10,838 nt of DNA from the UHGV virus genome UHGV-0114065; one strand, written 5' to 3'. Under the pieces are notes generated by a model that made no database searches, was not told the DNA's origin, and saw only the letters and a list, made by a program, of their open reading frames with translations. Shown here in pieces: positions 1,998-10,838 of this stretch (its first letter is position 1; each line of letters begins with the position of its first letter). Source of the stretch: a virus. Made by a program: the position numbers and the translations under genes.

Positions 1998-3835
1998 TGA
2001 AAGTAACTGCAAACGGTAAGACATTTACCTTCCCTGATGGTACGAGCACGGAAGATATTGGCACCGCCATTGATGAGTATTTTGCTGGTCAGGCTGTTCA
2101 GCAACAAACAGTTAATCAGGCCAATAATGAACCAGCACGTGAAGAACCATCATTGATGCAACAAGCTGGCGATTGGATCACTGGTGGTCAAAGTGCAGGG
2201 CAAATTGCAGAGCAGGCTGGTCGTGGTCTGGTAAACATACCATTTGACGTATTGCAGGGTGGCGCAAGTCTGATTAATGCAATCAGTCAGGGGCTTGGTG
2301 GGCCAAAAGTATTGGATGATGTTTATCGTCCAGTAGACAGACCGACAGACCCCTACGCACAAGCAGGTGAAACAATTGGTGGGTATTTAGTTCCAGGAGT
2401 TGGAACGGCAGGAAGCATGGCTATTGGATCACTGGCAGAGGCCGCAAATCAGAAAGGCGATTTCGCACAAAATGCAGCTAAAAATGCCGGAGTTAACCTT
2501 GCCGCTCAGGGTGTTCTTTCCGCAGCAGCAAAGGGAATAGGGCGTGGAATAACGGCTATAAAAGGTGATATTGCGCCAGAAGTGGCGAAGAAAATTGCCA
2601 CATCAGAATCGATGGGCGTGACACCAATGACATCTGATGTTATCCCGCCGAAAAATGCTTTCACTCGCGGCCTTACTCAGGATGCCGAGGGGGCTTTGCT
2701 CGGGACAGGCTCAAAGAGAGCGGAGCAATATGCAACGCGTAGTAAGCTGGTAAGCAATTATTTTGACCGTTTTGGTGAGTACAACCCTGATGATGTGGTG
2801 AAATCTCTGACCACCACGTTAAGGGGGCGGAAGGATGCCGCTGGCGCTGTTATCAATGACATCACCAATAAAATGGGTAATGCCGCAGTTGATACCACAA
2901 ATACCATGAATGCTCTGAATACAGCGATCGCAAGACAGGAACGACTTGGGACGTCTGCCAATCAAAGCCTGCTTACATCCTTGCGTAACCTACGTGAAGA
3001 ATTAGCAAACCCTGCAACTGATTTGGATGTTACGTTTGATCTCTTGCGTCAGCACAGAACGGCATTTAGATCTAATGTTCAGGGAGATGCTATGGTCTTC
3101 CCCAACCAGGCAAAAGCAGCTACCAATATGGTAGAGAATGCAATGTCAAAAGACCTTCGTAACGCAGTTGCAAAAAACCTCGGTGCATCAGACGCAGCAA
3201 AATACCTTAAAGCAAATTCTGATTATGCAAACGTTTATAATAAGGTGCTTAATAAAAACATTGCTAACAAACTCAACAAGGCAAGCAGTGAAGCCAGCCC
3301 TGAACTTATAAATACCGTTGTATTAAGCAGAAAACCATCTGACGTGAAACGAATATGGAGCGCACTGGATGATAAAGGGAAAGATGCTATGCGTGCAGCT
3401 TACGTCAGCAAAATAGCGGAAAAGGTCGGTGTCTCTCCAGCCAAGTTCATCACTGAAGTTAATAAGCTGAAATCTCAGTCAGGCGGTGAAATTTACAACA
3501 CTATTTTTTCTGGAAAGCACATGAAAGAGCTTGATGCTCTTCATGAAGTTCTACAGCAAACAGCAAGGTCAGACACCGCAAATGTAGTAACTCAGACGGG
3601 GCAATCACAAGCCAACAGGATAAGGACGATTGGCGCAACTGCGACTCTTGGCGTATCAATGGGGATTGAGGCTGGTTTTGGTGCAATGATGCGTTTGTAT
3701 GAGTCCAAAGCAGCAAGGAATGCGCTCTTACGTCTGGCAAACACTAAAGCTGGAACGCCAGCTTATGAAAGAGCGCTAAATCAGGCTGCTACTGCCGTGC
3801 GCCCGCTCTTAGCTAACGAAGCGACCCGGCAGTAG
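1994..3835 (+). CDS. DNA-ejection (E) protein, P22 gp16-like
   Basis: 613-aa ORF, translationally coupled to the upstream gene. Length is close to P22 gp16 (about 609 aa, from memory). It is the last gene of the late structural operon before the immI region. Confidence 0.8.
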
Positions 3836-4569: not shown

Positions 4570-5151
4570 CTATCTAAACGTTGCACACGACTCATCTATC
4601 CATTTTTCATAAAATTGTATACCGAGATAGGCAAGAACAGATGGATGTATATCAACAAGCTTTTCGCCAAGATGTTCTGTTGGAGGTGGATAATCTTTGC
4701 CTTGGTTTCTTACGGTTATAGGCATAGTTGTTGCTGGATGAAACTCAACTATCATAGGGTCGCCTTCGTATTTTGCTATTTTCCCTGTTGAATCAATGAT
4801 TAACTCTTTAATATAATGGCTTCTTGCTCCCGGAAATGCCCCAAGAGTAGTATAAGGAGGTTCAAGTTTTGAGATTTCCATAGTGGAATGATGATCAGCA
4901 TTTCTTGCTTGGTGAAGGTAAGCAAGTGTTTTGTCTGTTTTTCTAAGCATGAACTTTTGGTTGAAGTGGCTGCTAAATTTTCCACTAACCGGCTTTGTTG
5001 CACAGAGCAACTTACTGAAAGACTTTTCTATATGCCCAAGACATTCTCGCCAGTGCATTTCAAAATCATCATGGTTTGTAGATGATTTCATCTGCTCTAG
5101 GCACTTTTTAGCTGCGATGATTTCTTTTTTTGCTGGGTTGTAATCGATCAT
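4570..5151 (-). CDS. Hypothetical protein (193 aa), translationally coupled downstream of mnt; function unknown
   Basis: Minus-strand ORF whose ATG (complement of 5149-5151) overlaps the mnt stop codon (ATGA overlap at 5148-5151). No TM segments and no motif I can assign. AT-rich. Confidence 0.7.
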   Translation of the reverse strand: MIDYNPAKKEIIAAKKCLEQMKSSTNHDDFEMHWRECLGHIEKSFSKLLCATKPVSGKFSSHFNQKFMLRKTDKTLAYLHQARNADHHSTMEISKLEPPYTTLGAFPGARSHYIKELIIDSTGKIAKYEGDPMIVEFHPATTMPITVRNQGKDYPPPTEHLGEKLVDIHPSVLAYLGIQFYEKWIDESCATFR

Positions 5152-5402
5152 TTTGCATCCTTGCCATACATGTTTTTAAGTGTCTCAAATACCACAGACT
5201 TGAACTGTTCAGCCTGCATCTCGGCTAATCGTTCAGCTTCATTGCGATAACCTTTTACAGGAGATGGTCTCGATAGAGCATCTTGGACGATTTGCAACAA
5301 TTCTGAGTTCATTGATCTACCATTTGACTCTGCTCTGTATTTTAATTTTTCTCTTACTTCCAAAGGCATGCGGAAGTTAAAGTGCGGATCATCTCTAGCC
5401 AT
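5148..5402 (-). CDS. mnt: Mnt repressor (ribbon-helix-helix; maintenance of Pant repression in lysogens)
   Basis: 84-aa product MARDDPHFNFRMPLEVREKLKYRAESNGRSMNSELLQIVQDAL... closely matches the P22 Mnt N-terminal RHH domain as I recall it. It is divergent from arc across the operator region. GGAG lies 9 nt upstream of the ATG on the minus strand. Confidence 0.9.
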   Translation of the reverse strand: MARDDPHFNFRMPLEVREKLKYRAESNGRSMNSELLQIVQDALSRPSPVKGYRNEAERLAEMQAEQFKSVVFETLKNMYGKDAK

Positions 5403-5424
5403 GCCATCACTCCAAGTTAGTGTA

Positions 5425-5453
5425 TTGACATGATAGAAGCACTCTACTATATT
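5425..5453 (+). promoter_or_regulatory. Pant promoter (-35 TTGACA 5425-5430, 17-bp spacer, -10 TATATT 5448-5453)
   Basis: Consensus -35 and near-consensus -10 with the arc operator in the spacer, as in the P22 immI region. It drives arc-ant. Confidence 0.8.
5430..5450. promoter_or_regulatory. Arc operator (21 bp, ATGATAGAAGCACTCTACTAT)
   Basis: Exact match to the P22 Oarc sequence as recalled, with TAGA/TCTA half-sites. It lies between the -35 and -10 of both Pant and Pmnt. Confidence 0.8.
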
Positions 5454-5458
5454 CTCAA
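5430..5458 (-). promoter_or_regulatory. Pmnt promoter (minus strand: -35 TTGAGA at 5453-5458, 17-bp spacer, -10 TATCAT at 5430-5435)
   Basis: Divergent promoter overlapping Pant. The hexamers were read from the reverse complement. Arrangement is consistent with the known P22 Pant/Pmnt overlap. Confidence 0.6.
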
Positions 5459-5477
5459 TAGGTCCACCGTGGACCTA
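5459..5477. promoter_or_regulatory. Mnt operator (palindrome TAGGTCCACCGTGGACCTA)
   Basis: 19-bp near-perfect palindrome centred on one base, matching the P22 Omnt as recalled. It overlaps the predicted Pant transcription start. Confidence 0.8.
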
Positions 5478-5492
5478 TATTGTGAGGTGAAC

Positions 5493-5654
5493 ATGAAAGG
5501 AATGAGCAAAATGCCGCAGTTCAATTTGCGGTGGCCTAAAGAAGTATTGGATTTGGTACGCAAGGTGGCGGAAGAGAATGGTCGGTCTGTTAACTCTGAG
5601 ATTTATCAGAGAGTAATGGACAGCTTTAAGAAGGAAGGGCGTATTGGCGCGTAA
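5493..5654 (+). CDS. arc: Arc repressor (53 aa, ribbon-helix-helix)
   Basis: [53 protein letters not shown] differs from recalled P22 Arc at only two positions (R16K, E43D). GAGGTG RBS precedes the ATG at 5493. The longer ORF from 5430 in the track runs through the operators and is not the real start. Confidence 0.93.
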
Positions 5655-5722
5655 AGTTGAAGCCCCAACTGCGGGAACAGTCAGGGCTTCTGTTGTCAGT
5701 AAATTCGTGGAGAAAAACCAAC
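5654..5722 (-). ncRNA. sar: sar antisense RNA (about 69 nt) complementary to the arc-ant intercistronic region and ant RBS
   Basis: Extended -10 promoter on the minus strand (TGCTATACT, complement of 5729-5737) places a start near 5722, the complement of the ant ATG. The transcript would cover the ant RBS (5709-5717) and a 7-bp inverted repeat (5659-5665 / 5684-5690), ending near the arc stop. This matches the published P22 sar arrangement; the ends are inferred, not measured. Confidence 0.45.
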
Positions 5723-6625
5723 ATGAATAGTATAGCAATTTTAGAAGCAGTGAACACCTCTTACGTACCTTTCAATGGTCAGCAGATTATCACCGCCATG
5801 ACTGCCGGAGTTGCATATGTTGCGATGAAGCCAATCGTTGAAAACCTTGGAATGAGCTGGTCAACGCAGCAAACAAAACTCATGAAGCAGATTAGCAAAT
5901 TCAACTGTGTTCATATGAACATGGTTGCCGCTGATGGTAAGCTTCGTAAGCTACTCTGCCTTCCTTTGAAGAAGTTAAATGGATGGCTGTTCAGCATCAA
6001 CCCTGAGAAAGTTCGTGCTGACATCCGCGATAAACTGATTCAGTACCAGGAAGAATGCTTTACTGTGCTGCATGACTACTGGACGAAGGGAAAGGCAGAA
6101 AATGCACGTAAGAAAACATCTGTTGATGACAGGACTCCGCTTCGTGATGCTGTAAATATGCTAGTCAGCAAAAAGCATCTAATGTACCCAGAAGCTTATG
6201 CAATGATTCATCAGCGTTTCAACGTGGAAAGTATTGAAGAGCTTGATTCATCTCAGATACCGCAAGCAGTAGAGTACATCCACAGGGTAGTGCTTGAAGG
6301 CGAGTTCATCGGCAAACAAGAGAAGAAAACCAACGAGCTTTCTGCAAAAGAAGCAAACAGCCTTGTATGGCTATGGGATTATGCCAACCGCTCACAGGCA
6401 TTATTCCGCGAACTGTATCCGGCGCTGAAACAAATTCAATCGAACTATTCCGGCAGATGTCATGACTGCGGTTATGAGTTCTCCCGTATTATCGATATAG
6501 CGAGAGACGTTTTAATCAATCACACACGAGATGTTGATATTAATGAGCCAGACGGACCAACGAATCTTTCCGCATGGATGAGACTTAAGAATAAAGAATT
6601 ACCTCCTTCAGTACATAACTACTGA
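5723..6625 (+). CDS. ant: Antirepressor Ant (300 aa)
   Basis: Start placed at ATG 5723 ([21 protein letters not shown]...) with GGAGAAAAA RBS; the track ORF from 5657 is an upstream in-frame extension. Position after arc and length of 300 aa match P22 Ant. Confidence 0.88.
5729..5737 (-). promoter_or_regulatory. Psar extended -10 element (TGnTATACT on minus strand)
   Basis: Read from the reverse complement of 5729-5737, inside the first codons of ant. No good -35 is present, consistent with an extended -10 promoter. Confidence 0.45.
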
Positions 6626-6725: not shown

Positions 6726-8495
6726 ATGACAGACATTACAGCCAATGTGATCGTATCGATGCCTTCGCAACTCTTCACTATGGCGCGTTCTTTTAAAGCT
6801 GTTGCCAATGGCAAAATTTATATCGGAAAAATTGACACTGACCCGGTAAATCCTGAAAACCAGATTCAGGTTTATGTAGAGAACGAAGACGGCTCTCACG
6901 TTCCTGTTTCGCAACCAATCATCATTAACGCTGCTGGTTACCCGGTATATAACGGACAGATTGCCAAGTTCGTAACTGTGCAAGGCCATTCTATGGCTGT
7001 TTATGATGCGTACGGTGCGCAGCAGTTTTATTATCCGAACGTACTAAAATACGACCCGGATCAGTACAGTAAAATGGTCGGAGGCCTTACAACACCAGTA
7101 ACATGGCCTGGGTTTGCCGGAGGAGCAGATCCGACCGGAGTTAATTCATCTACAGCGGCTTTTCAAGCGTCATTGGATCAGATCGGCTACATTAACATGC
7201 CGCCAGGGGAGTACTTAATTGATGAAAGCTTAAACCTTGCAAAATCAGCTGTAATCTTTGGTGCTGGGAGATCGCTATCGAAGTTAAAATTCTCCGGGAA
7301 TTCTGCAACGCCTTTCGTTAAGGCTGCATTAGGGTACGCATCAACCGATTTAGTATATTTGCGTGATTTCACAGCCATTGCCACAGTTCCAAACTGCGGC
7401 CCTCTGGTTTCAATAAAAACAGATGCCGCCGCGCAATCTGCATCTCAGGTCGTTGTTGGTGATTTAGACAAACTAGTCATTAACAATGTTGATGCTTATG
7501 GTGATTCAAGCGGGAACTACTGGAATTGTGGCTTTGAAGCCATCGACTGCGGTGGTGTCCATATTCATAATTTCACAGTTAATAACAGGACTGTTTCGGC
7601 GCAAACTGACACATCGACATCTGGATTCAGGTTCAGAACTACGGCGCAAAAAGTAAGTGTAATACGCGCCCTGACAGCACAGGATTTCTACCTACTGAGA
7701 ATGTATTACGGCATCGACACGAAGCCGTTTAATAATCTCGGGGGCGGGATTACCAGTTATTATCTTTCCGACTTCGAAATCGTTGGCGTCAGGAATGGAA
7801 TAAGGGCTCAGAACTGGTGTGCGGCATGGCGAGTTACTGGGCATATCGATTCTACTGAGCAATGCCTAAACTTCCAGGGGGCGGGATTAACAAACGCACG
7901 GTTCACTGGCTGCGATTTCAGAAAAGGGAATAACGGCGGGCTAGGTTATGTTGCAGGACCAATGGTTACCCTGGACTACGGTGAGCAAATAACTTTCACG
8001 GGCGCGACGTTCTCCGGAATAAACCTCAATCTTGCTGACCCAAGCAATACTGCTTTTAGTTTTACCAATGCTTACAACGGCAACTGGGCATTTCTGATCA
8101 GTATTGACGGAAATACTTTTACTAAGTTTCACAACGTCATTGGGCAGACTAATAGCACCAATATTATTAGTATCGGCATTAATTCTTACAACCAGATTGC
8201 CGATGCAATAACCTTCGATTCAAATCTTGATCCAAGCTTTAGGCTTCAGACACCAATTCCAAGCATCAGCAAAGTTGTTGCCTTGCCAGTGGGAGATAGT
8301 ACATTTACCGTAAATGTTACCGCTAACCGTTTCAAAAATGCGCCTAACTATGCTGATGCTCGCCCGGTGAATAACCCAACTCAGAATGTCAGGGTTGTTT
8401 ATGATTATGCCGGATCTACAGCGAGCGCACTGCTTTTTAGGGTTTATGGAGTGGTGACCGCTGGGAACTTCCGATTTGGCATAATTACGGCATAA
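6726..8495 (+). CDS. Tailspike protein: P22 gp9-type N-terminal head-binding domain (about aa 1-115) fused to a divergent receptor-binding/enzymatic domain
   Basis: N-terminus [34 protein letters not shown]...VTVQGHSM...[11 protein letters not shown] matches the P22 tailspike head-binding domain from memory. Downstream of about nt 7070 the sequence is unrelated to the P22 endorhamnosidase domain. GGAG RBS at 6713-6716. Confidence 0.85.
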
Positions 8496-8513
8496 GCAAT
8501 ACAGGAGAAATAA

Positions 8514-8807
8514 ATGCGAGATATTTCACCACTGCTTCATGCTGTCACCGCTTTAGCTGTTCAGGCTGCTTTTGGCCTTTCCTCACGCGATTGGATAACT
8601 GGGGGTCTGCTGGGGAGTCTTTGGTTTATCGCTCGCGAGCACACCCAGGCTGAGTATCGCTGGATTGCCCAGTTCGGCGCAGGGAAGCGCGCCAACATGC
8701 CGTGGTGGGGCGGGTTCTCCTGGCGCGCATGGAACCTTCCCAGCATGCTCGACTGGATTGTGCCGGTGGCGACCTGCGCTGCCGTTTATTTTGCCTCCAC
8801 CCTTTAA
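8514..8807 (+). CDS. Hypothetical small membrane protein (97 aa), G+C-rich cargo gene immediately downstream of the tailspike
   Basis: ATG at 8514 with AGGAG RBS 6 nt upstream. Two or three hydrophobic/Trp-rich segments by eye. Composition is visibly more G+C-rich than flanking phage genes. It sits where P22-like phages carry O-antigen conversion genes (gtr or oac). Confidence 0.6.
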   Translation: MRDISPLLHAVTALAVQAAFGLSSRDWITGGLLGSLWFIAREHTQAEYRWIAQFGAGKRANMPWWGGFSWRAWNLPSMLDWIVPVATCAAVYFASTL

Positions 8808-8863
8808 CTCCTGTCGAGCTCATTGATAGGCGCCGACACATTGATCTGCACCTCCTTTAAAAC

Positions 8864-8883
8864 TACTGTATATAAAAACAGTA
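8864..8883. promoter_or_regulatory. LexA (SOS) box TACTGTATATAAAAACAGTA
   Basis: CTGT-N8-ACAG with 18 of 20 positions matching the E. coli consensus TACTGTATATATATACAGTA. It ends 1 nt before the AAGGAG RBS (8885-8890) of the downstream gene. Confidence 0.7.
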
Positions 8884-8898
8884 AAAGGAGTGCAGGTC

Positions 8899-9138
8899 AT
8901 GCCACGCCGTTCCGACATTCACGCCGCATTTGTGGCCGCAATACAGCTAAACCCCAAGGGCTACCGGTGCTTACGCACAGAAGACTTTATCCGCGAACTG
9001 GCAAAGGTCCACTGGCATTTCAGCCGGGCCGACGCCAACGAGTGGATAGAGCGCTATCAGCCCGACTTCACCGACAAGACAACTGACGGAACCGACAATC
9101 ACTACTGGATCCTGCGCAATATGGGGAGGGTTCACTGA
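8899..9138 (+). CDS. Hypothetical small protein (79 aa), first gene of the SOS-box-controlled cassette
   Basis: ATG at 8899 with AAGGAG 8 nt upstream; the ORF track starts it at a GTG at 8890 inside the RBS. Its stop overlaps the next gene's start (TGATG at 9136-9140). No recognisable family. Confidence 0.6.
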   Translation: MPRRSDIHAAFVAAIQLNPKGYRCLRTEDFIRELAKVHWHFSRADANEWIERYQPDFTDKTTDGTDNHYWILRNMGRVH

Positions 9139-9455
9139 TGGGCTTTCCTTCACCGGCGGGCGACTACGTAGAGCAGCGGTTAACACCGGAGCGTATCTGC
9201 GGGATCGGCATGGACAGCCGCATCCTCGAAACATCATCCGGCTTTGCCGTTATCGAACCGTGCACCAGGCTGGTACAGAATCAGGTTCTGCTGATTTTAT
9301 CTGGCGGCAGAACGCAGTTTGCCAGGGTAATGGGTAGGGCATTAATCACTGATGATGGTGAAGCGATCGAAGGGGAGGAGGCGGAGGAAGTTGAGGTGCT
9401 GGGGCGCGTGACGTTCTTCATCAACAGCGCGCTACAGGATGACAGGGTGGTTTGA
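9138..9455 (+). CDS. UmuD'-like protein (degenerate S24/LexA-type peptidase fold, starts at the position of the UmuD cleavage site; catalytic Ser/Lys not evident)
   Basis: N-terminus MGFPSPAGDYVEQRL matches UmuD residues 25-38 (GFPSPAADYVEQRI), the first residues of processed UmuD'. The C-terminal pattern EVEVLGRVTFFINSA resembles the last beta-strands of UmuD/LexA. GGGGAGGG RBS 7 nt upstream. I could not find the conserved Ser-Met and Thr-Val-Lys motifs. Confidence 0.65.
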   Translation: MGFPSPAGDYVEQRLTPERICGIGMDSRILETSSGFAVIEPCTRLVQNQVLLILSGGRTQFARVMGRALITDDGEAIEGEEAEEVEVLGRVTFFINSALQDDRVV

Positions 9456-9465
9456 TTGGGTGGCA

Positions 9466-10623
9466 TTACGCCACCTTTTCATCAAGCCAGTCCGCCCACC
9501 ACTGCATCATTTCTCTGCGCTTATCGAGATACTGAGCATGGTTGTAAATCCCGCGCACAGATCCGCCGTTGGCATGTGCCAGTTGCACTTCAATAGCGTC
9601 GGCAGGCCATTCGTGCTCGTTCATAATCGTGCTGAATTCATGCCTGAATCCGTGACCGCTTTCCAGACCTTCATAGCCGATTTGTTTGATCACAAGCAAT
9701 ACCGCGTTCTCGCAGATTGGCTTTTTCTTATCATTGCGCCCGGCAAAAACAAACTCTGATACTGGTTTGGTGATTGAGCTTAGCGTAGTGAGAAGTTCAA
9801 CCACCTGGTCCGACATCGGGACCACATGAATTTTGCGTCCCTTCATCACACTGGCGTCGATGGTGATAATCCTGTTTTCAAAATCGACGTTCTTCCATTG
9901 CATGGAACGAAGCTCTTTCGTTCTTAGGGCTGTGTAGCGTAAAACTTTGGTCGCAATGAGCGATACGATACTTCCTGAAAATGTTGCCAGTGCTTTGTTG
10001 AATGCCGGGATCTGGTCTGCAGGAAGAAACGGGAAGTTCTTCTTGCGGTATCCCTTCATGGCGTCAGCAAGGTCAGGTGCCGGGTTATATTTAGCCCTAC
10101 CAGTGACAATAGCGTAACGGAAAACCTCGCCGCATCTTCTGCGGGCTTTGTTGGCTCGCTCCATTGCACCGCGATCTTCAAATCTGCGGATTACTTCCAG
10201 CAGTTGCATCGGCTCAATATCCTGAATTTCAAGGCCGCCGATGATAGGTAAAATGTCGTCATCAAACATTTTTGCAAGTTCAGTTGCATAGCCTACTGAC
10301 CAGACTTGCTTCTTGTGCTCGTACCATTCCTTGTAAATGGCGCTAAAGGAATTGTTGTTAGACGAAGCCTTTTTCGCCTTTACCGGATCGATGCCAACCG
10401 AGATGTCTTTCCTCGCAGTCCATGCTTTATCCCTTGCCTCTTGCAAAGTCATAAGCGGGTATTTTCCGACGGTCAGGATTTTCTCCTTACCGTCAATCTT
10501 GTAGCGAAGCTGCCATACCTTTTTCCCTGACACAGGGACATAAAGGTACAGGCCATTACCATCGAGAAGGCGGTATGGTTTTTCTTTCGGCTTTGCTGCT
10601 TCAATCTGCTTAACGGTGAGCAT
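9466..10623 (-). CDS. int: Tyrosine integrase, P4/IntS family (385 aa from ATG at 10623; alternative GTG start at 10659)
   Basis: N-terminus MLTVKQIEAAKPKEKPYRLLDGNGLYLYV is typical of P4-family integrases. Catalytic residues are visible (R in LRTKELR, HGFRH, Y in GIYNHAQY). It reads away from the adjacent tRNA 3' end, as expected for tRNA-targeting P4-type integrases. Confidence 0.9.
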   Translation of the reverse strand: MLTVKQIEAAKPKEKPYRLLDGNGLYLYVPVSGKKVWQLRYKIDGKEKILTVGKYPLMTLQEARDKAWTARKDISVGIDPVKAKKASSNNNSFSAIYKEWYEHKKQVWSVGYATELAKMFDDDILPIIGGLEIQDIEPMQLLEVIRRFEDRGAMERANKARRRCGEVFRYAIVTGRAKYNPAPDLADAMKGYRKKNFPFLPADQIPAFNKALATFSGSIVSLIATKVLRYTALRTKELRSMQWKNVDFENRIITIDASVMKGRKIHVVPMSDQVVELLTTLSSITKPVSEFVFAGRNDKKKPICENAVLLVIKQIGYEGLESGHGFRHEFSTIMNEHEWPADAIEVQLAHANGGSVRGIYNHAQYLDKRREMMQWWADWLDEKVA

Positions 10624-10668
10624 GGGTAAAAATCCGGTGGGTAAAATTATTTTATCCACTTTTTACCC
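10624..10668. repeat. Three copies of a 9-bp motif GGGTAAAA(A/T) in the integrase leader (10624-10632, 10639-10647, and inverted at 10660-10668)
   Basis: Read directly from the sequence. Two direct copies and one inverted copy lie within 45 bp immediately 5' of the int ATG. Candidate integrase arm-type or regulator sites. Confidence 0.4.
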
Positions 10669-10785: not shown

Positions 10786-10838
10786 GGTGTCCCCTGCAGG
10801 AATCGAACCTGCAATTAGCCCTTAGGAGGGGCTCGTTA
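10786..10838 (-). tRNA. argW: tRNA-Arg (anticodon CCU), 3' portion only; 5' part lies beyond the window end. Probable prophage attL core
   Basis: Reverse complement of 10786-10838 reads TAACGAGCCCCTCCTAAGGGCTAATTGCAGGTTCGATTCCTGCAGGGGACACCA. This gives an anticodon arm AGCCC-CUCCUAA-GGGCU (anticodon CCU), a T-arm with GGTTCGATTCC, and a 3' CCA. It matches enterobacterial argW from memory. Confidence 0.9.

Follow-up and report, generated by a model that had tools for sequence, protein, structure and literature searches.

Among the main routes to stress-induced mutation and antibiotic resistance is SOS mutagenesis by Pol V, which is normally held back because UmuD is cleaved slowly. Genes of the humD type that are controlled by a LexA box are known in P1 and N15. 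In the P1 record, HumD is described as a protein that "functionally complements E. coli UmuD'", and a LexA site is annotated in the regulatory region. Another phage protein, gp26 of mEp390, is annotated as similar to HumD.

The DNA analyzed here (the window) was a stretch of 10,838 nucleotides of the virus genome UHGV-0114065. It was found to contain a two-gene unit, orfA-orfB, flanked by the tailspike gene and the integrase gene of a P22-like prophage (Table 1). Ejection proteins, SieA, Mnt/Arc, Ant and the sar RNA were identified as further P22-like context. Considering these flanks and markers, the unit lies in the moron (lysogenic-conversion) slot of such a prophage, as proposed in the initial annotation. 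The novelty that was ascribed there to the module was overstated, because the module is widespread and some of it already carries an annotation (PHROG 3469, 'UmuD-like protein'; mEp390 gp26) and has parallels in P1, N15 and the P22-like phage BTP1, in which a decayed humD-type gene occupies the equivalent slot. The orfA-orfB unit is a very common relative of phage P1 HumD rather than a new kind of system.

The end of orfA and the start of orfB overlap in the sequence TGATG, in agreement with the translational coupling that had been claimed for this pair of 79-aa and 105-aa products. When the UmuC N-terminus was used as the tblastn query, neither the window nor any of the related loci compared gave a UmuC-like gene; the statement that no such polymerase gene accompanies the pair was thus upheld. 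The claim of a G+C-rich cassette was confirmed: the G+C content was 0.53-0.59 across positions 8400-9600 versus 0.41-0.49 within the tailspike gene. The rich tract starts further upstream than claimed and also covers a separate 97-aa ORF. Beyond orfB, a stem-loop was read by eye from the sequence. It is followed by only four T's, a run below the terminator-scan threshold, and may be regarded as a weak candidate for the intrinsic terminator of the cassette.

Table 1. Features of the orfA-orfB cassette and its flanks (positions in the window)
Feature	Position	Strand	Description
Tailspike gene	6726-8495		P22 head-binding domain, E 1e-66
Separate ORF	8514-8807		97 aa; inside the G+C-rich tract
Upstream promoter region	8822-8849	+	Two ATTGAT blocks: ATTGATAG (8822-8829) and ATTGATCTGC (8840-8849)
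Extended inverted repeat	8839-8901	+	Left arm 8839-8858, right arm 8884-8901; encloses the SOS box
Inferred -35 hexamer	8841-8846		TTGATC
Predicted LexA (SOS) box	8864-8883	none	TACTGTATATAAAAACAGTA; consensus match, umuDC identity, conservation
Inferred -10 hexamer	8864-8869		TACTGT; first hexamer of the LexA box
Shine-Dalgarno sequence of orfA	8885-8890		AAGGAG
orfA	8899-9138	+	ATG start; 79 aa; predicted winged-helix protein; PHROG 3893
orfB	9138-9455	+	105-aa 'mini-HumD'; pre-truncated UmuD' homologue; phrog_3469
Stem-loop	9459-9479	+	GGTGGC-ATTAC-GCCACC, then TTTT; candidate intrinsic terminator of the cassette; overlaps the int 3' end
Integrase gene	9466-10659	-	Directly after orfB

Operator and promoter of the cassette

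The predicted LexA box differed from the 20-mer LexA consensus at two positions, had a perfect CTGT-N8-ACAG core and had no second site of this kind beside it in the window; 200 shuffled sequences gave no match at all. Its 20-mer was identical to the operator of E. coli K-12 umuDC. A CTG-N10-CAG match, which was always CTGT-N8-ACAG, was present 5' of orfA in 87 of 88 loci, a count that takes in Klebsiella versions with OrfA only 47% identical. These results confirmed the near-consensus LexA box that had been placed on the promoter/RBS region.

The similarity to umuDC was found to extend upstream of the box. The two ATTGAT blocks aligned with the K-12 umuDC promoter at equal spacing from the SOS box, and the alignment score observed for the 45 nt 5' of the box was reached in only 4 of 2000 shuffles. 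TTGATC stood exactly 17 nt ahead of TACTGT in all eight loci of one comparison set, and TTGATC-N17-TACTGT was the prevailing layout among 76 distinct upstream sequences. Both the LexA box and the -35 spacing were kept down to 47% protein identity, also on a plasmid. TACTGT was taken as the -10 hexamer; in the record of phage 186, the -10 of promoter p95 is likewise annotated as the TACTGT that opens the LexA site. Judging by these alignments, the promoter/operator of the cassette and the umuDC promoter clearly share ancestry, and the two-gene unit is probably switched on by DNA damage.

The layout of the cassette, with a LexA box doubling as the promoter -10 at a prophage end, is that of p95-tum. 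It speaks for one suggestion of the initial annotation, namely, that the unit is an SOS-triggered antirepressor or induction module resembling phage 186 Tum or the Gifsy antirepressors. Nevertheless, this explanation is very improbable. BLASTP of OrfA and OrfB against Tum gave no alignment at E <= 100, which also led us to reject both OrfA and OrfB as Tum proteins, and neither product showed similarity to DinI. In addition, the unit is found on conjugative plasmids and in phages whose immunity regions are unrelated, the prophage already has a complete Ant/Mnt/Arc/sar region, and the ancestry of OrfB is that of UmuD' rather than of a repressor-binding protein.

The SOS box is enclosed in an extended inverted repeat, and both the Shine-Dalgarno sequence and the AUG start codon of orfA fall within its right arm. 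The left arm falls in the promoter spacer and would therefore be absent from the SOS-driven transcript. As RNA, the repeat had a folding energy of -27.6 kcal/mol (z = -7.25). In its outer helix, 83% of the cells were paired and 10 pairs showed compensatory changes, which none of 500 shuffles reached. However, G-U and A-C mismatches were equally common (63 and 52, respectively), so selection at the RNA level lacked support, and RNAalifold retained only the core of the SOS box. An RNA switch that hides the Shine-Dalgarno sequence and the AUG in read-through transcripts was considered because of the strong fold and was rejected on account of the RNAalifold result and the G-U/A-C parity.

The two encoded proteins

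OrfB matched phrog_3469 ('UmuD-like protein') with an E-value of 9.5e-46 and the HumD/UmuD' profile with an hhalign probability of 98.9% (E 2e-17, 106 columns). Its alignment with UmuD and the HumD proteins of P1, N15 and HK140 spanned the full length. The NCBIfam HumD model NF051876 matched residues 1-21 only, at 29.7 bits with a cut-off of 120. In Pfam, PF00717 (Peptidase_S24) included, neither OrfB nor the related proteins of mEp390 and Klebsiella gave a match, whereas the HumD-like proteins of P1, HK140 and IncX3 pass PF00717. Across Pfam, NCBIfam and PADLOC, the 21-residue arm was the only part of OrfB that was matched. A search of PDB sequences with OrfB gave a match to UmuD/UmuD' in the arm only. 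In the AlphaFold2 model of OrfB, the pLDDT was 79 overall and 52-66 over the first 20 residues; the low values in this segment fit a flexible arm. The top Foldseek matches of the model were the LexA C-terminal domain, UmuD' (1ay9 and 1umu; TM 0.58) and the lambda CI C-terminal domain, with weak E-values (0.01-0.1) and moderate model confidence. On this basis, OrfB is predicted to have a LexA/UmuD'-type (S24) beta fold. The UmuD'-like label given to the 105-aa product was borne out by the PHROG assignment, the hhalign match and the predicted fold, and OrfB is, as its alignments indicate, a full-length yet degenerate UmuD'/HumD homologue.

The similarity was concentrated in the N-terminal arm. 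Residues 2-20 of OrfB aligned to residues 25-43 of UmuD (1-19 of UmuD'), and the protein begins precisely where UmuD is cleaved, Gly25 being the corresponding residue of UmuD. The arm MGFPSPAGDYVEQR was retained, its general form being GFPSPAxDYVEQR, and in the segment GFPSPAGDYVEQR only 1 of 13 residues differed from UmuD'. Eleven of the 12 columns that are invariant across OrfB, HumD and UmuD lie within the first 14 residues; OrfB and all HumDs compared begin with MGFPSPA. The Ser60/Lys97 dyad is not known to be required for the activity of UmuD' in mutagenesis. OrfB is devoid of the 12-residue loop bearing Ser60, and the column of Lys97 is occupied by Ala or Val.

In an AlphaFold model of Pol V, the UmuD' arm makes contact with UmuC at its palm, its little finger and its C-terminus, and S36, T71 and K73 of UmuD' hold the C-terminal carboxylate of UmuC (PMC11791011). 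According to experiments cited in the same paper, armless UmuD' still dimerizes and supports no mutagenesis (PMC11791011). By our own conversion (+24 residues), S36, T71 and K73 of UmuD' correspond to Ser60, Thr95 and Lys97 of UmuD. Since the Ser60 loop and Lys97 are gone from OrfB, one of the two modelled UmuC contacts is possibly lost, and this loss of the modelled pocket would be as compatible with a decoy as with a surrogate of UmuD'.

The decoy explanation supposes that OrfB, which keeps the UmuC-binding arm, may still bind the RecA* groove and lacks the rest of the UmuD' interface, is an antagonist of the Pol V/RecA* axis. It would occupy UmuC or RecA*, or heterodimerize with UmuD or UmuD', with no active mutasome as the result; host mutagenesis would then be lowered, or the UmuD2C replication checkpoint would be relieved during replication of the element. 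In its favor, DinI binds RecA filaments and inhibits UmuD cleavage, and plasmids are known to carry SOS inhibitors such as PsiB. The gene context adds to this, since in lambdoid relatives the cassette is divergent from a phage dinI gene (Pfam DinI, E 1e-21) and a dinI homologue was found near 16 of 80 viral loci. [quoted passage not shown] However, P1 HumD, the closest characterized relative, is recorded as complementing UmuD' and not as inhibiting it, and orfA pairs equally with full-length HumD that retains the Lys. The near-perfect conservation of the arm is compatible with either direction of the effect. Taken together, a decoy seems rather unlikely.

OrfA could be characterized mainly by its predicted structure, which has the topology H-S-H-H-S-S of a winged helix. 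Its structural matches were generic winged-helix domains with weak scores, and the LexA N-terminal domain was missing from the top matches. Searches of Pfam, NCBIfam and PADLOC yielded no match, and no real match was found among PDB sequences. In the phages and plasmids of enterobacteria, OrfA is what is usually encoded upstream of HumD-type genes. Its gene is coupled either to a mini-HumD or to a full-length 129-aa HumD (HK140, L060 and L070), and on plasmids to HumD-like genes of 118-120 aa; humD of P1 and N15 occurs without orfA.

LexA consists of a winged-helix domain and an S24 domain, and both fold types are present here as separate polypeptides. It is therefore conceivable that OrfA and OrfB form a two-piece LexA-like regulator, i.e., a second-tier SOS transcription factor for host or phage promoters, of which UmuDAb and DdrR of Acinetobacter would be the analogue. 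The start of OrfB exactly at the cleavage-site equivalent agrees with this explanation, as do the coupling of the two genes and their co-occurrence in nearly all loci. The properties of OrfA make it improbable. Its structural matches were generic and weak, without the LexA N-terminal domain at the top; its third helix, RADANEWIERY, which would be the DNA-reading one, is not basic; and no repeated candidate operator was found besides the LexA box. Furthermore, no fusion of OrfA to an S24 domain was present among 160 family clusters. In many winged-helix domains, such as PCI domains, the ligand is a protein rather than DNA, and OrfA is most likely a protein adaptor or stabilizer rather than a classical repressor.

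Other assignments of OrfA were also considered. An ImpC/DinI identity was rejected because OrfA had no Pfam DinI match, no BLASTP similarity to the DinI of mEp390 (which itself matches Pfam DinI at 1e-21) and a winged-helix predicted fold. The idea that the last residues of OrfA (RNMGRVH) mimic those of UmuC (LLRVK) was discarded since the similarity spans too few residues and the plasmid relatives have NPNGGR at this end. No fused proteins revealing the function of OrfA were found among the 160 family clusters (50% identity); a few long matches to the family look like frameshift fusions with the downstream HumD-like gene.

Distribution of the unit and its proposed role

Viral contigs with the unit numbered at least 557; it was also found in about 50 sequenced phages and in 1033 plasmid records, and the family searches yielded 1092, 821 and 791 protein clusters from several genera. 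Its hosts were P22-like and other, unrelated prophage types, with unrelated immunity regions among the phages, as well as IncX3 and IncN/IncY plasmids, the carriers including conjugative plasmids. The dN/dS ratios were 0.15 for orfA and 0.11 for orfB, which indicates purifying selection on both genes. The gene lengths were constant across loci (79 and about 105 aa), 77 of the 80 loci in which the downstream sequence could be read had the TGATG overlap, and orfA and orfB co-occurred in nearly all loci. No paper on the orfA-orfB pair was found in the literature; STM14_3218-3220 of Gifsy-1 was considered as a literature match and is unrelated.

The promoter and orfB do descend from a umuDC-type operon, and decayed copies exist: a humD pseudogene in BTP1, a frameshifted HumD gene in E. 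coli PCP07014 and an IncX3 copy with the LexA box cut by an insertion sequence. The cassette might thus be regarded as what is left of a umuDC or humD operon that has lost its function and is decaying. This explanation is hardly credible, considering the low dN/dS ratios (0.11-0.15), the constant gene lengths, the TGATG overlap in 77 of 80 readable loci and the more than 1000 clusters in several genera; purifying selection has already largely refuted it. With regard to the possibility, raised in the initial annotation, that the pair is a fragment of an impCAB/umuDC operon, the umuDC-type descent of the promoter and orfB stood, and the notion of a fragment did not. The conservation data point to a conserved, selected unit.

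The explanation that we favor, with confidence that falls a little short of even, is that the cassette, repressed by LexA, encodes a HumD-class surrogate of UmuD', the target of which is host UmuC (Pol V) and the partner of which is OrfA. LexA binding, SOS induction, contact with UmuC or RecA and the activating or inhibiting direction of the effect are what we infer. The cassette would be a mobile-element derivative of a umuDC-type SOS operon. In an undamaged lysogen, host LexA bound to the umuDC-identical operator would keep it silent, since the operator overlaps the -10 of the TTGATC-N17-TACTGT promoter. Upon DNA damage, self-cleavage of LexA would derepress the cassette along with host umuDC, and a single mRNA with a short leader would give OrfA and OrfB by coupled translation.

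OrfB would be produced already 'cleaved', from the equivalent of UmuD Gly25. Without the catalytic Ser loop and Lys but with the arm retained, its most likely target would be host UmuC, because the arm is kept and the Pol V model puts it beside the UmuC active site. A host-encoded UmuC is the presumable partner since no umuC accompanies the unit in any locus examined. OrfB may thus supply a UmuD'-like accessory function that bypasses the slow RecA*-dependent cleavage of UmuD, which is the role recorded for P1 HumD, and the element would gain in that lesions in its damaged DNA are bypassed earlier. The earlier suggestion of a modulator of host RecA/Pol V fits a HumD/UmuD' homologue with a UmuC-contacting arm and a umuDC-identical operator.

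A bolder explanation, which we consider doubtful, gives OrfA a direct part. OrfA and OrfB would form a mobile-element accessory complex that reprograms host UmuC, with OrfA as a hitherto unrecognized Pol V cofactor that perhaps replaces the anchoring contact of the Ser/Lys pocket lost by OrfB. If such a complex exists, phages and plasmids in their thousands could activate or shut down the translesion synthesis of the host without depending on UmuD cleavage mediated by RecA*.

Under the surrogate explanation, a common phage and plasmid unit may feed a ready-made, catalytically dead look-alike of UmuD' into the Pol V pathway. If this is true, mobile elements tune host mutagenesis far more often than the single example of P1 HumD suggests. 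OrfB could also serve as a natural experiment: the arm is kept and the modelled pocket for the UmuC C-terminus is gone, so the two contacts could be separated. OrfA is a partner new to characterization, with a confidently predicted fold.

Comparison with known systems

The first gene of impCAB is small (about 80 aa), and ImpC belongs to the DinI family. Like the cassette, impCAB, mucAB and rumAB provide SOS-regulated functions of the Pol V type on mobile elements; the cassette differs from them in having no ImpB/MucB/UmuC-type gene and an OrfA without similarity to DinI. The p95-tum operon of phage 186 shares with the cassette a LexA site that begins with TACTGT, the annotated -10, and a location at the prophage end. 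However, Tum is unrelated to OrfA and OrfB, and the cassette is tied to no single immunity type. UmuDAb of Acinetobacter is a UmuD-family protein that works within a DNA-damage regulon together with DdrR, a product of about 80 aa encoded beside it. In contrast to OrfB, it has retained its DNA-binding N-terminus, still cleaves itself and is a repressor.

The cassette has the 20-nt operator of E. coli umuDC unchanged and homologous promoter blocks, and OrfB shares its predicted fold with UmuD' (TM 0.58 to 1ay9 and 1umu). Unlike umuDC, the cassette has neither umuC nor a cleavable N-terminus, Ser60 or Lys97, and an extra winged-helix gene stands between the promoter and the umuD'-like gene.

The closest counterparts are the HumDs, namely, P1 HumD, N15 gp26 and HK140 gp28 (NF051876). 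They and OrfB are orphan UmuD' homologues on mobile elements that lack the N-terminal 24 residues, start with MGFPSPAxDYVE and have a LexA box just 5' and no umuC. The identity between the HumDs and OrfB was 27-29% over the full length. The HumDs of P1, N15 and HK140 comprise 129 aa, whereas OrfB has 105 aa and lacks a 12-residue loop (the Ser of which is kept in P1 HumD) and a 6-residue loop. The Lys is kept by the HumDs and missing from OrfB, and the HumDs pass Pfam Peptidase_S24, which OrfB fails. Unlike the cassette, P1 and N15 have no orfA, whereas in HK140 the same orfA gene overlaps humD, as it overlaps orfB in the cassette.

Organization and control region of the cassette

The window corresponds to the right end of a P22-like prophage. 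The cassette was exactly as described in the initial annotation: a LexA box was followed by an overlapping pair of genes of 79 and 105 aa, the G+C content was higher (0.53-0.59 over 8400-9600 vs 0.41-0.49 within the tailspike gene), and no UmuC-like gene was found in the window. The two genes, orfA and orfB, overlapped in the sequence TGATG.

Features of the window around the orfA-orfB cassette
Feature	Position	Strand	Remarks
Ejection-protein genes, then sieA			First in order
immI region	5148-6625		Complete, P22-type: Mnt/Arc-like genes, Ant antirepressor gene, sar antisense RNA
sar antisense RNA	5655-5722	minus	Rfam RF00262, 91 bits
Tailspike gene	6726-8495		P22 head-binding domain
97-aa ORF	8514-8807	plus	G+C 0.59; PHROG 1443 (function unknown)
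Extended inverted repeat, TGATCTGCACCTCCTTT ... AAAGGAGTGCAGGTCA	8839-8858 with 8884-8901		Flanks SOS box
LexA (SOS) box, TACTGTATATAAAAACAGTA	8864-8883		2 mismatches to 20-mer consensus
Shine-Dalgarno, AAGGAG	8885-8890
orfA	8899-9138		79 aa
orfB	9138-9455		105 aa
GC stem-loop, then TTTT	9459-9479
Integrase gene, IntS-type	9466-10659	minus
tRNA gene, 3' part	10788-10838	minus	Cut by window end, just past integrase gene

The tRNA fragment beside the integrase gene agrees with integration at a tRNA gene, and a close relative, the E. coli EC31 prophage, was located at the tRNA-Arg gene beside yfdC. Among 80 related viral loci, only 6 had the 97-aa ORF ahead of the cassette, and it was therefore considered a separate moron; it encodes three hydrophobic segments and had no match in Pfam, NCBIfam or PADLOC. 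A terminator-like hairpin (8764-8784) lies within its 3' end. A 193-aa ORF adjoining sieA on the minus strand (4570-5151), within an A+T-rich stretch, aligned along its entire length with PHROG 23516 (function unknown; E = 7e-120); it too may be a moron.

The LexA-box-type site occurred once in the window, and 0 of 200 shuffles gave a match. The 20-mer operator was identical to the umuD operator of E. coli K-12. The 45 nt 5' of the box aligned with the umuDC promoter with a score equalled in only 4 of 2000 shuffles, and the blocks ATTGATAG and ATTGATCTGC were found at equal distances in both promoters. Judged by sequence, the operator and promoter of the cassette are of the umuDC type. The TTGATC-to-TACTGT spacing was exactly 17 nt in all eight loci compared, and this layout prevailed among 76 distinct upstream sequences. 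Because of this conserved spacing, the putative promoter was defined as TTGATC-N17-TACTGT, with the left half of the SOS box serving as the -10 element; the same layout is annotated in the record of the phage 186 SOS promoter p95. LexA on the box would block the -10 element and the start site, and the predicted leader is approximately 20 nt. We infer that the cassette is bound by LexA and induced in the SOS response. Since host umuDC has an identical 20-mer operator, the cassette would be expected to be derepressed together with host UmuD and UmuC.

The inverted repeat, whose left arm falls in the promoter spacer, would pair the orfA Shine-Dalgarno sequence and AUG with the -35/spacer region. 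Folded as RNA, 8839-8901 gave -27.6 kcal/mol (z = -7.25), and compensatory changes across loci were found at 10 pairs. RNAalifold did not recover the repeat, and G-U pairs were not in excess over A-C mismatches, the two being balanced. The E. coli K-12 umuDC promoter contains a shorter form of this repeat. Two functions are conceivable for the repeat, silencing of read-through transcripts or an effect at the level of the DNA.

Relationship of OrfB and OrfA to known proteins

Sequence libraries detected only the first 21 residues of OrfB: it scored 29.7 bits against the NCBIfam HumD model (cut-off 120), matched UmuD residues 25-43 in the PDB and had no match in Pfam. It matched PHROG 3469, named 'UmuD-like protein' (E = 9.5e-46). 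OrfB could be aligned over its full length with P1 HumD, N15 gp26, HK140 gp28 and UmuD (27-29% identity). Its first residue aligned with UmuD Gly25, directly after the cleavage site, and invariance among OrfB, HumD and UmuD was concentrated in the first 14 residues, with 11 of the 12 invariant columns. The 12-residue loop carrying Ser60 and a second loop of 6 residues were deleted, and the Lys97 column was not Lys in OrfB. Profile-profile comparison with HumD/UmuD' extended over all 106 columns (probability 98.9%, E = 2e-17). The top structure matches of the AlphaFold2 model (pLDDT 79, N-terminal arm of low confidence) were exclusively the LexA C-terminal domain, UmuD' (TM 0.58) and the lambda CI C-terminal domain. 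It was concluded that OrfB is a stripped-down HumD/UmuD'; the full-length alignment, profile comparison and predicted fold bear out its original UmuD'-like label.

OrfA is predicted to be a small winged-helix protein and belongs to no named family. It matched PHROG 3893 (function unknown), and its family comprised 791 clusters at 90% identity, every one named hypothetical, and only 160 at 50% identity, among which no genuine fusions were found. A relationship with DinI or Tum was rejected, OrfA being unrelated to both. Its third helix is not basic; therefore, DNA binding is no more likely than protein binding. That the pair constitutes a two-piece LexA-like regulator was judged improbable. The OrfA C-terminus (...RNMGRVH, 9124-9138) shares R-V-x with that of E. 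coli UmuC (...LLRVK), whose C-terminal segment is docked onto UmuD' in a published model (PMC11791011). This likeness is probably due to chance since it is very short and absent from the plasmid relatives, which end in NPNGGR.

Distribution and conservation of the gene pair

Close DNA matches were found in 24 of 5426 complete E. coli genomes, where they occupied three different prophage settings: at argW the prophage was P22-like, beside yciB it had tail genes of siphovirus type, and at icd the carrier was a gtrABC-bearing element. Among sequenced phages, OrfA was found in 48 records and OrfB in 56, the hosts being Escherichia, Enterobacter, Klebsiella, Cronobacter, Erwinia and Pantoea; matches were also found in at least 557 IMG/VR viral contigs and 1033 plasmid records (948 predicted conjugative). 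Most of the plasmids listed had a size of about 46 kb, and the example examined was IncX3. In more than 1000 plasmid records, a distant orfA relative (38% identity) lay immediately 5' of a HumD-like 'umuD'.

CTG-N10-CAG was found 5' of orfA in 87 of 88 loci, always as CTGT-N8-ACAG. The downstream sequence was readable in 80 loci, and in 77 of these an MGFPSPA-type ORF began in the TGATG overlap. The dN/dS values were 0.15 for orfA and 0.11 for orfB. It was concluded that the two genes are a widespread unit under selection, and a dead remnant is scarcely credible. The orfA partner varied: it was usually the 105-aa mini form, in HK140 and two further loci (L060 and L070) a full-length 129-aa HumD, and on plasmids a HumD-like gene of 118-120 aa. 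umuC was absent from every related locus searched.

In the lambdoid relatives Eeyore, mEp390, HK225 and HK140, a phage dinI gene was transcribed divergently from the orfA promoter region, which may place two functions related to RecA/Pol V under the control of a single intergenic region. In HK225, orfA was extended to 99 aa, with no HumD-like gene after it. On the IncX3 plasmid pVH1 (2899-3600), the LexA box had lost its left half to ISKox3; on pBK28009 (2960-3625), the box was intact, and the annotated umuD start missed the true MGFPSPAMDY start.

Proposed role and comparison with known systems

In an AlphaFold model of Pol V (PMC11791011), UmuD' contacts UmuC in two ways. [quoted passage not shown] In the second contact, UmuD' S36, T71 and K73 (UmuD Ser60, Thr95 and Lys97 by our own arithmetic, +24 residues) bind the UmuC C-terminus. 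OrfB kept the first contact almost intact, whereas the residues of the second were lost. HumD complemented UmuD' according to the P1 record. Considering this record and the modelled contacts, the reading favoured, tentatively, is that OrfB would act as a UmuD' surrogate on host UmuC without RecA*-dependent processing. The main rival, a decoy or antagonist of UmuC or RecA*, appears rather unlikely. The initial annotation had suggested a modulator of host RecA/Pol V or an antirepressor; a UmuC-directed role is in line with the former. The latter is very improbable: the unit is carried by unrelated phages as well as by plasmids, and the prophage already has its own Ant system; both observations argue for a host target. 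The module is common and open to direct testing by standard SOS-mutagenesis genetics.

The humD genes of P1 and N15 have a LexA box, as does the cassette, but, unlike it, lack orfA. In the P22-like Salmonella phage BTP1, a LexA box together with a humD pseudogene occupies the slot of the cassette: at 2440-2900, between gtrA and int, a TTGATC -35 element and LexA box TACTGTATTAATATACAGTA precede the pseudogene MEFPSPAADYVEQR..., which contains an internal stop and a frameshift. In contrast to the cassette, this slot has no orfA, and the record annotates an opposite-strand hypothetical gene there. The cassette is the 'mini-HumD plus winged-helix partner' form of the known LexA-controlled orphan UmuD'-like genes on mobile elements.
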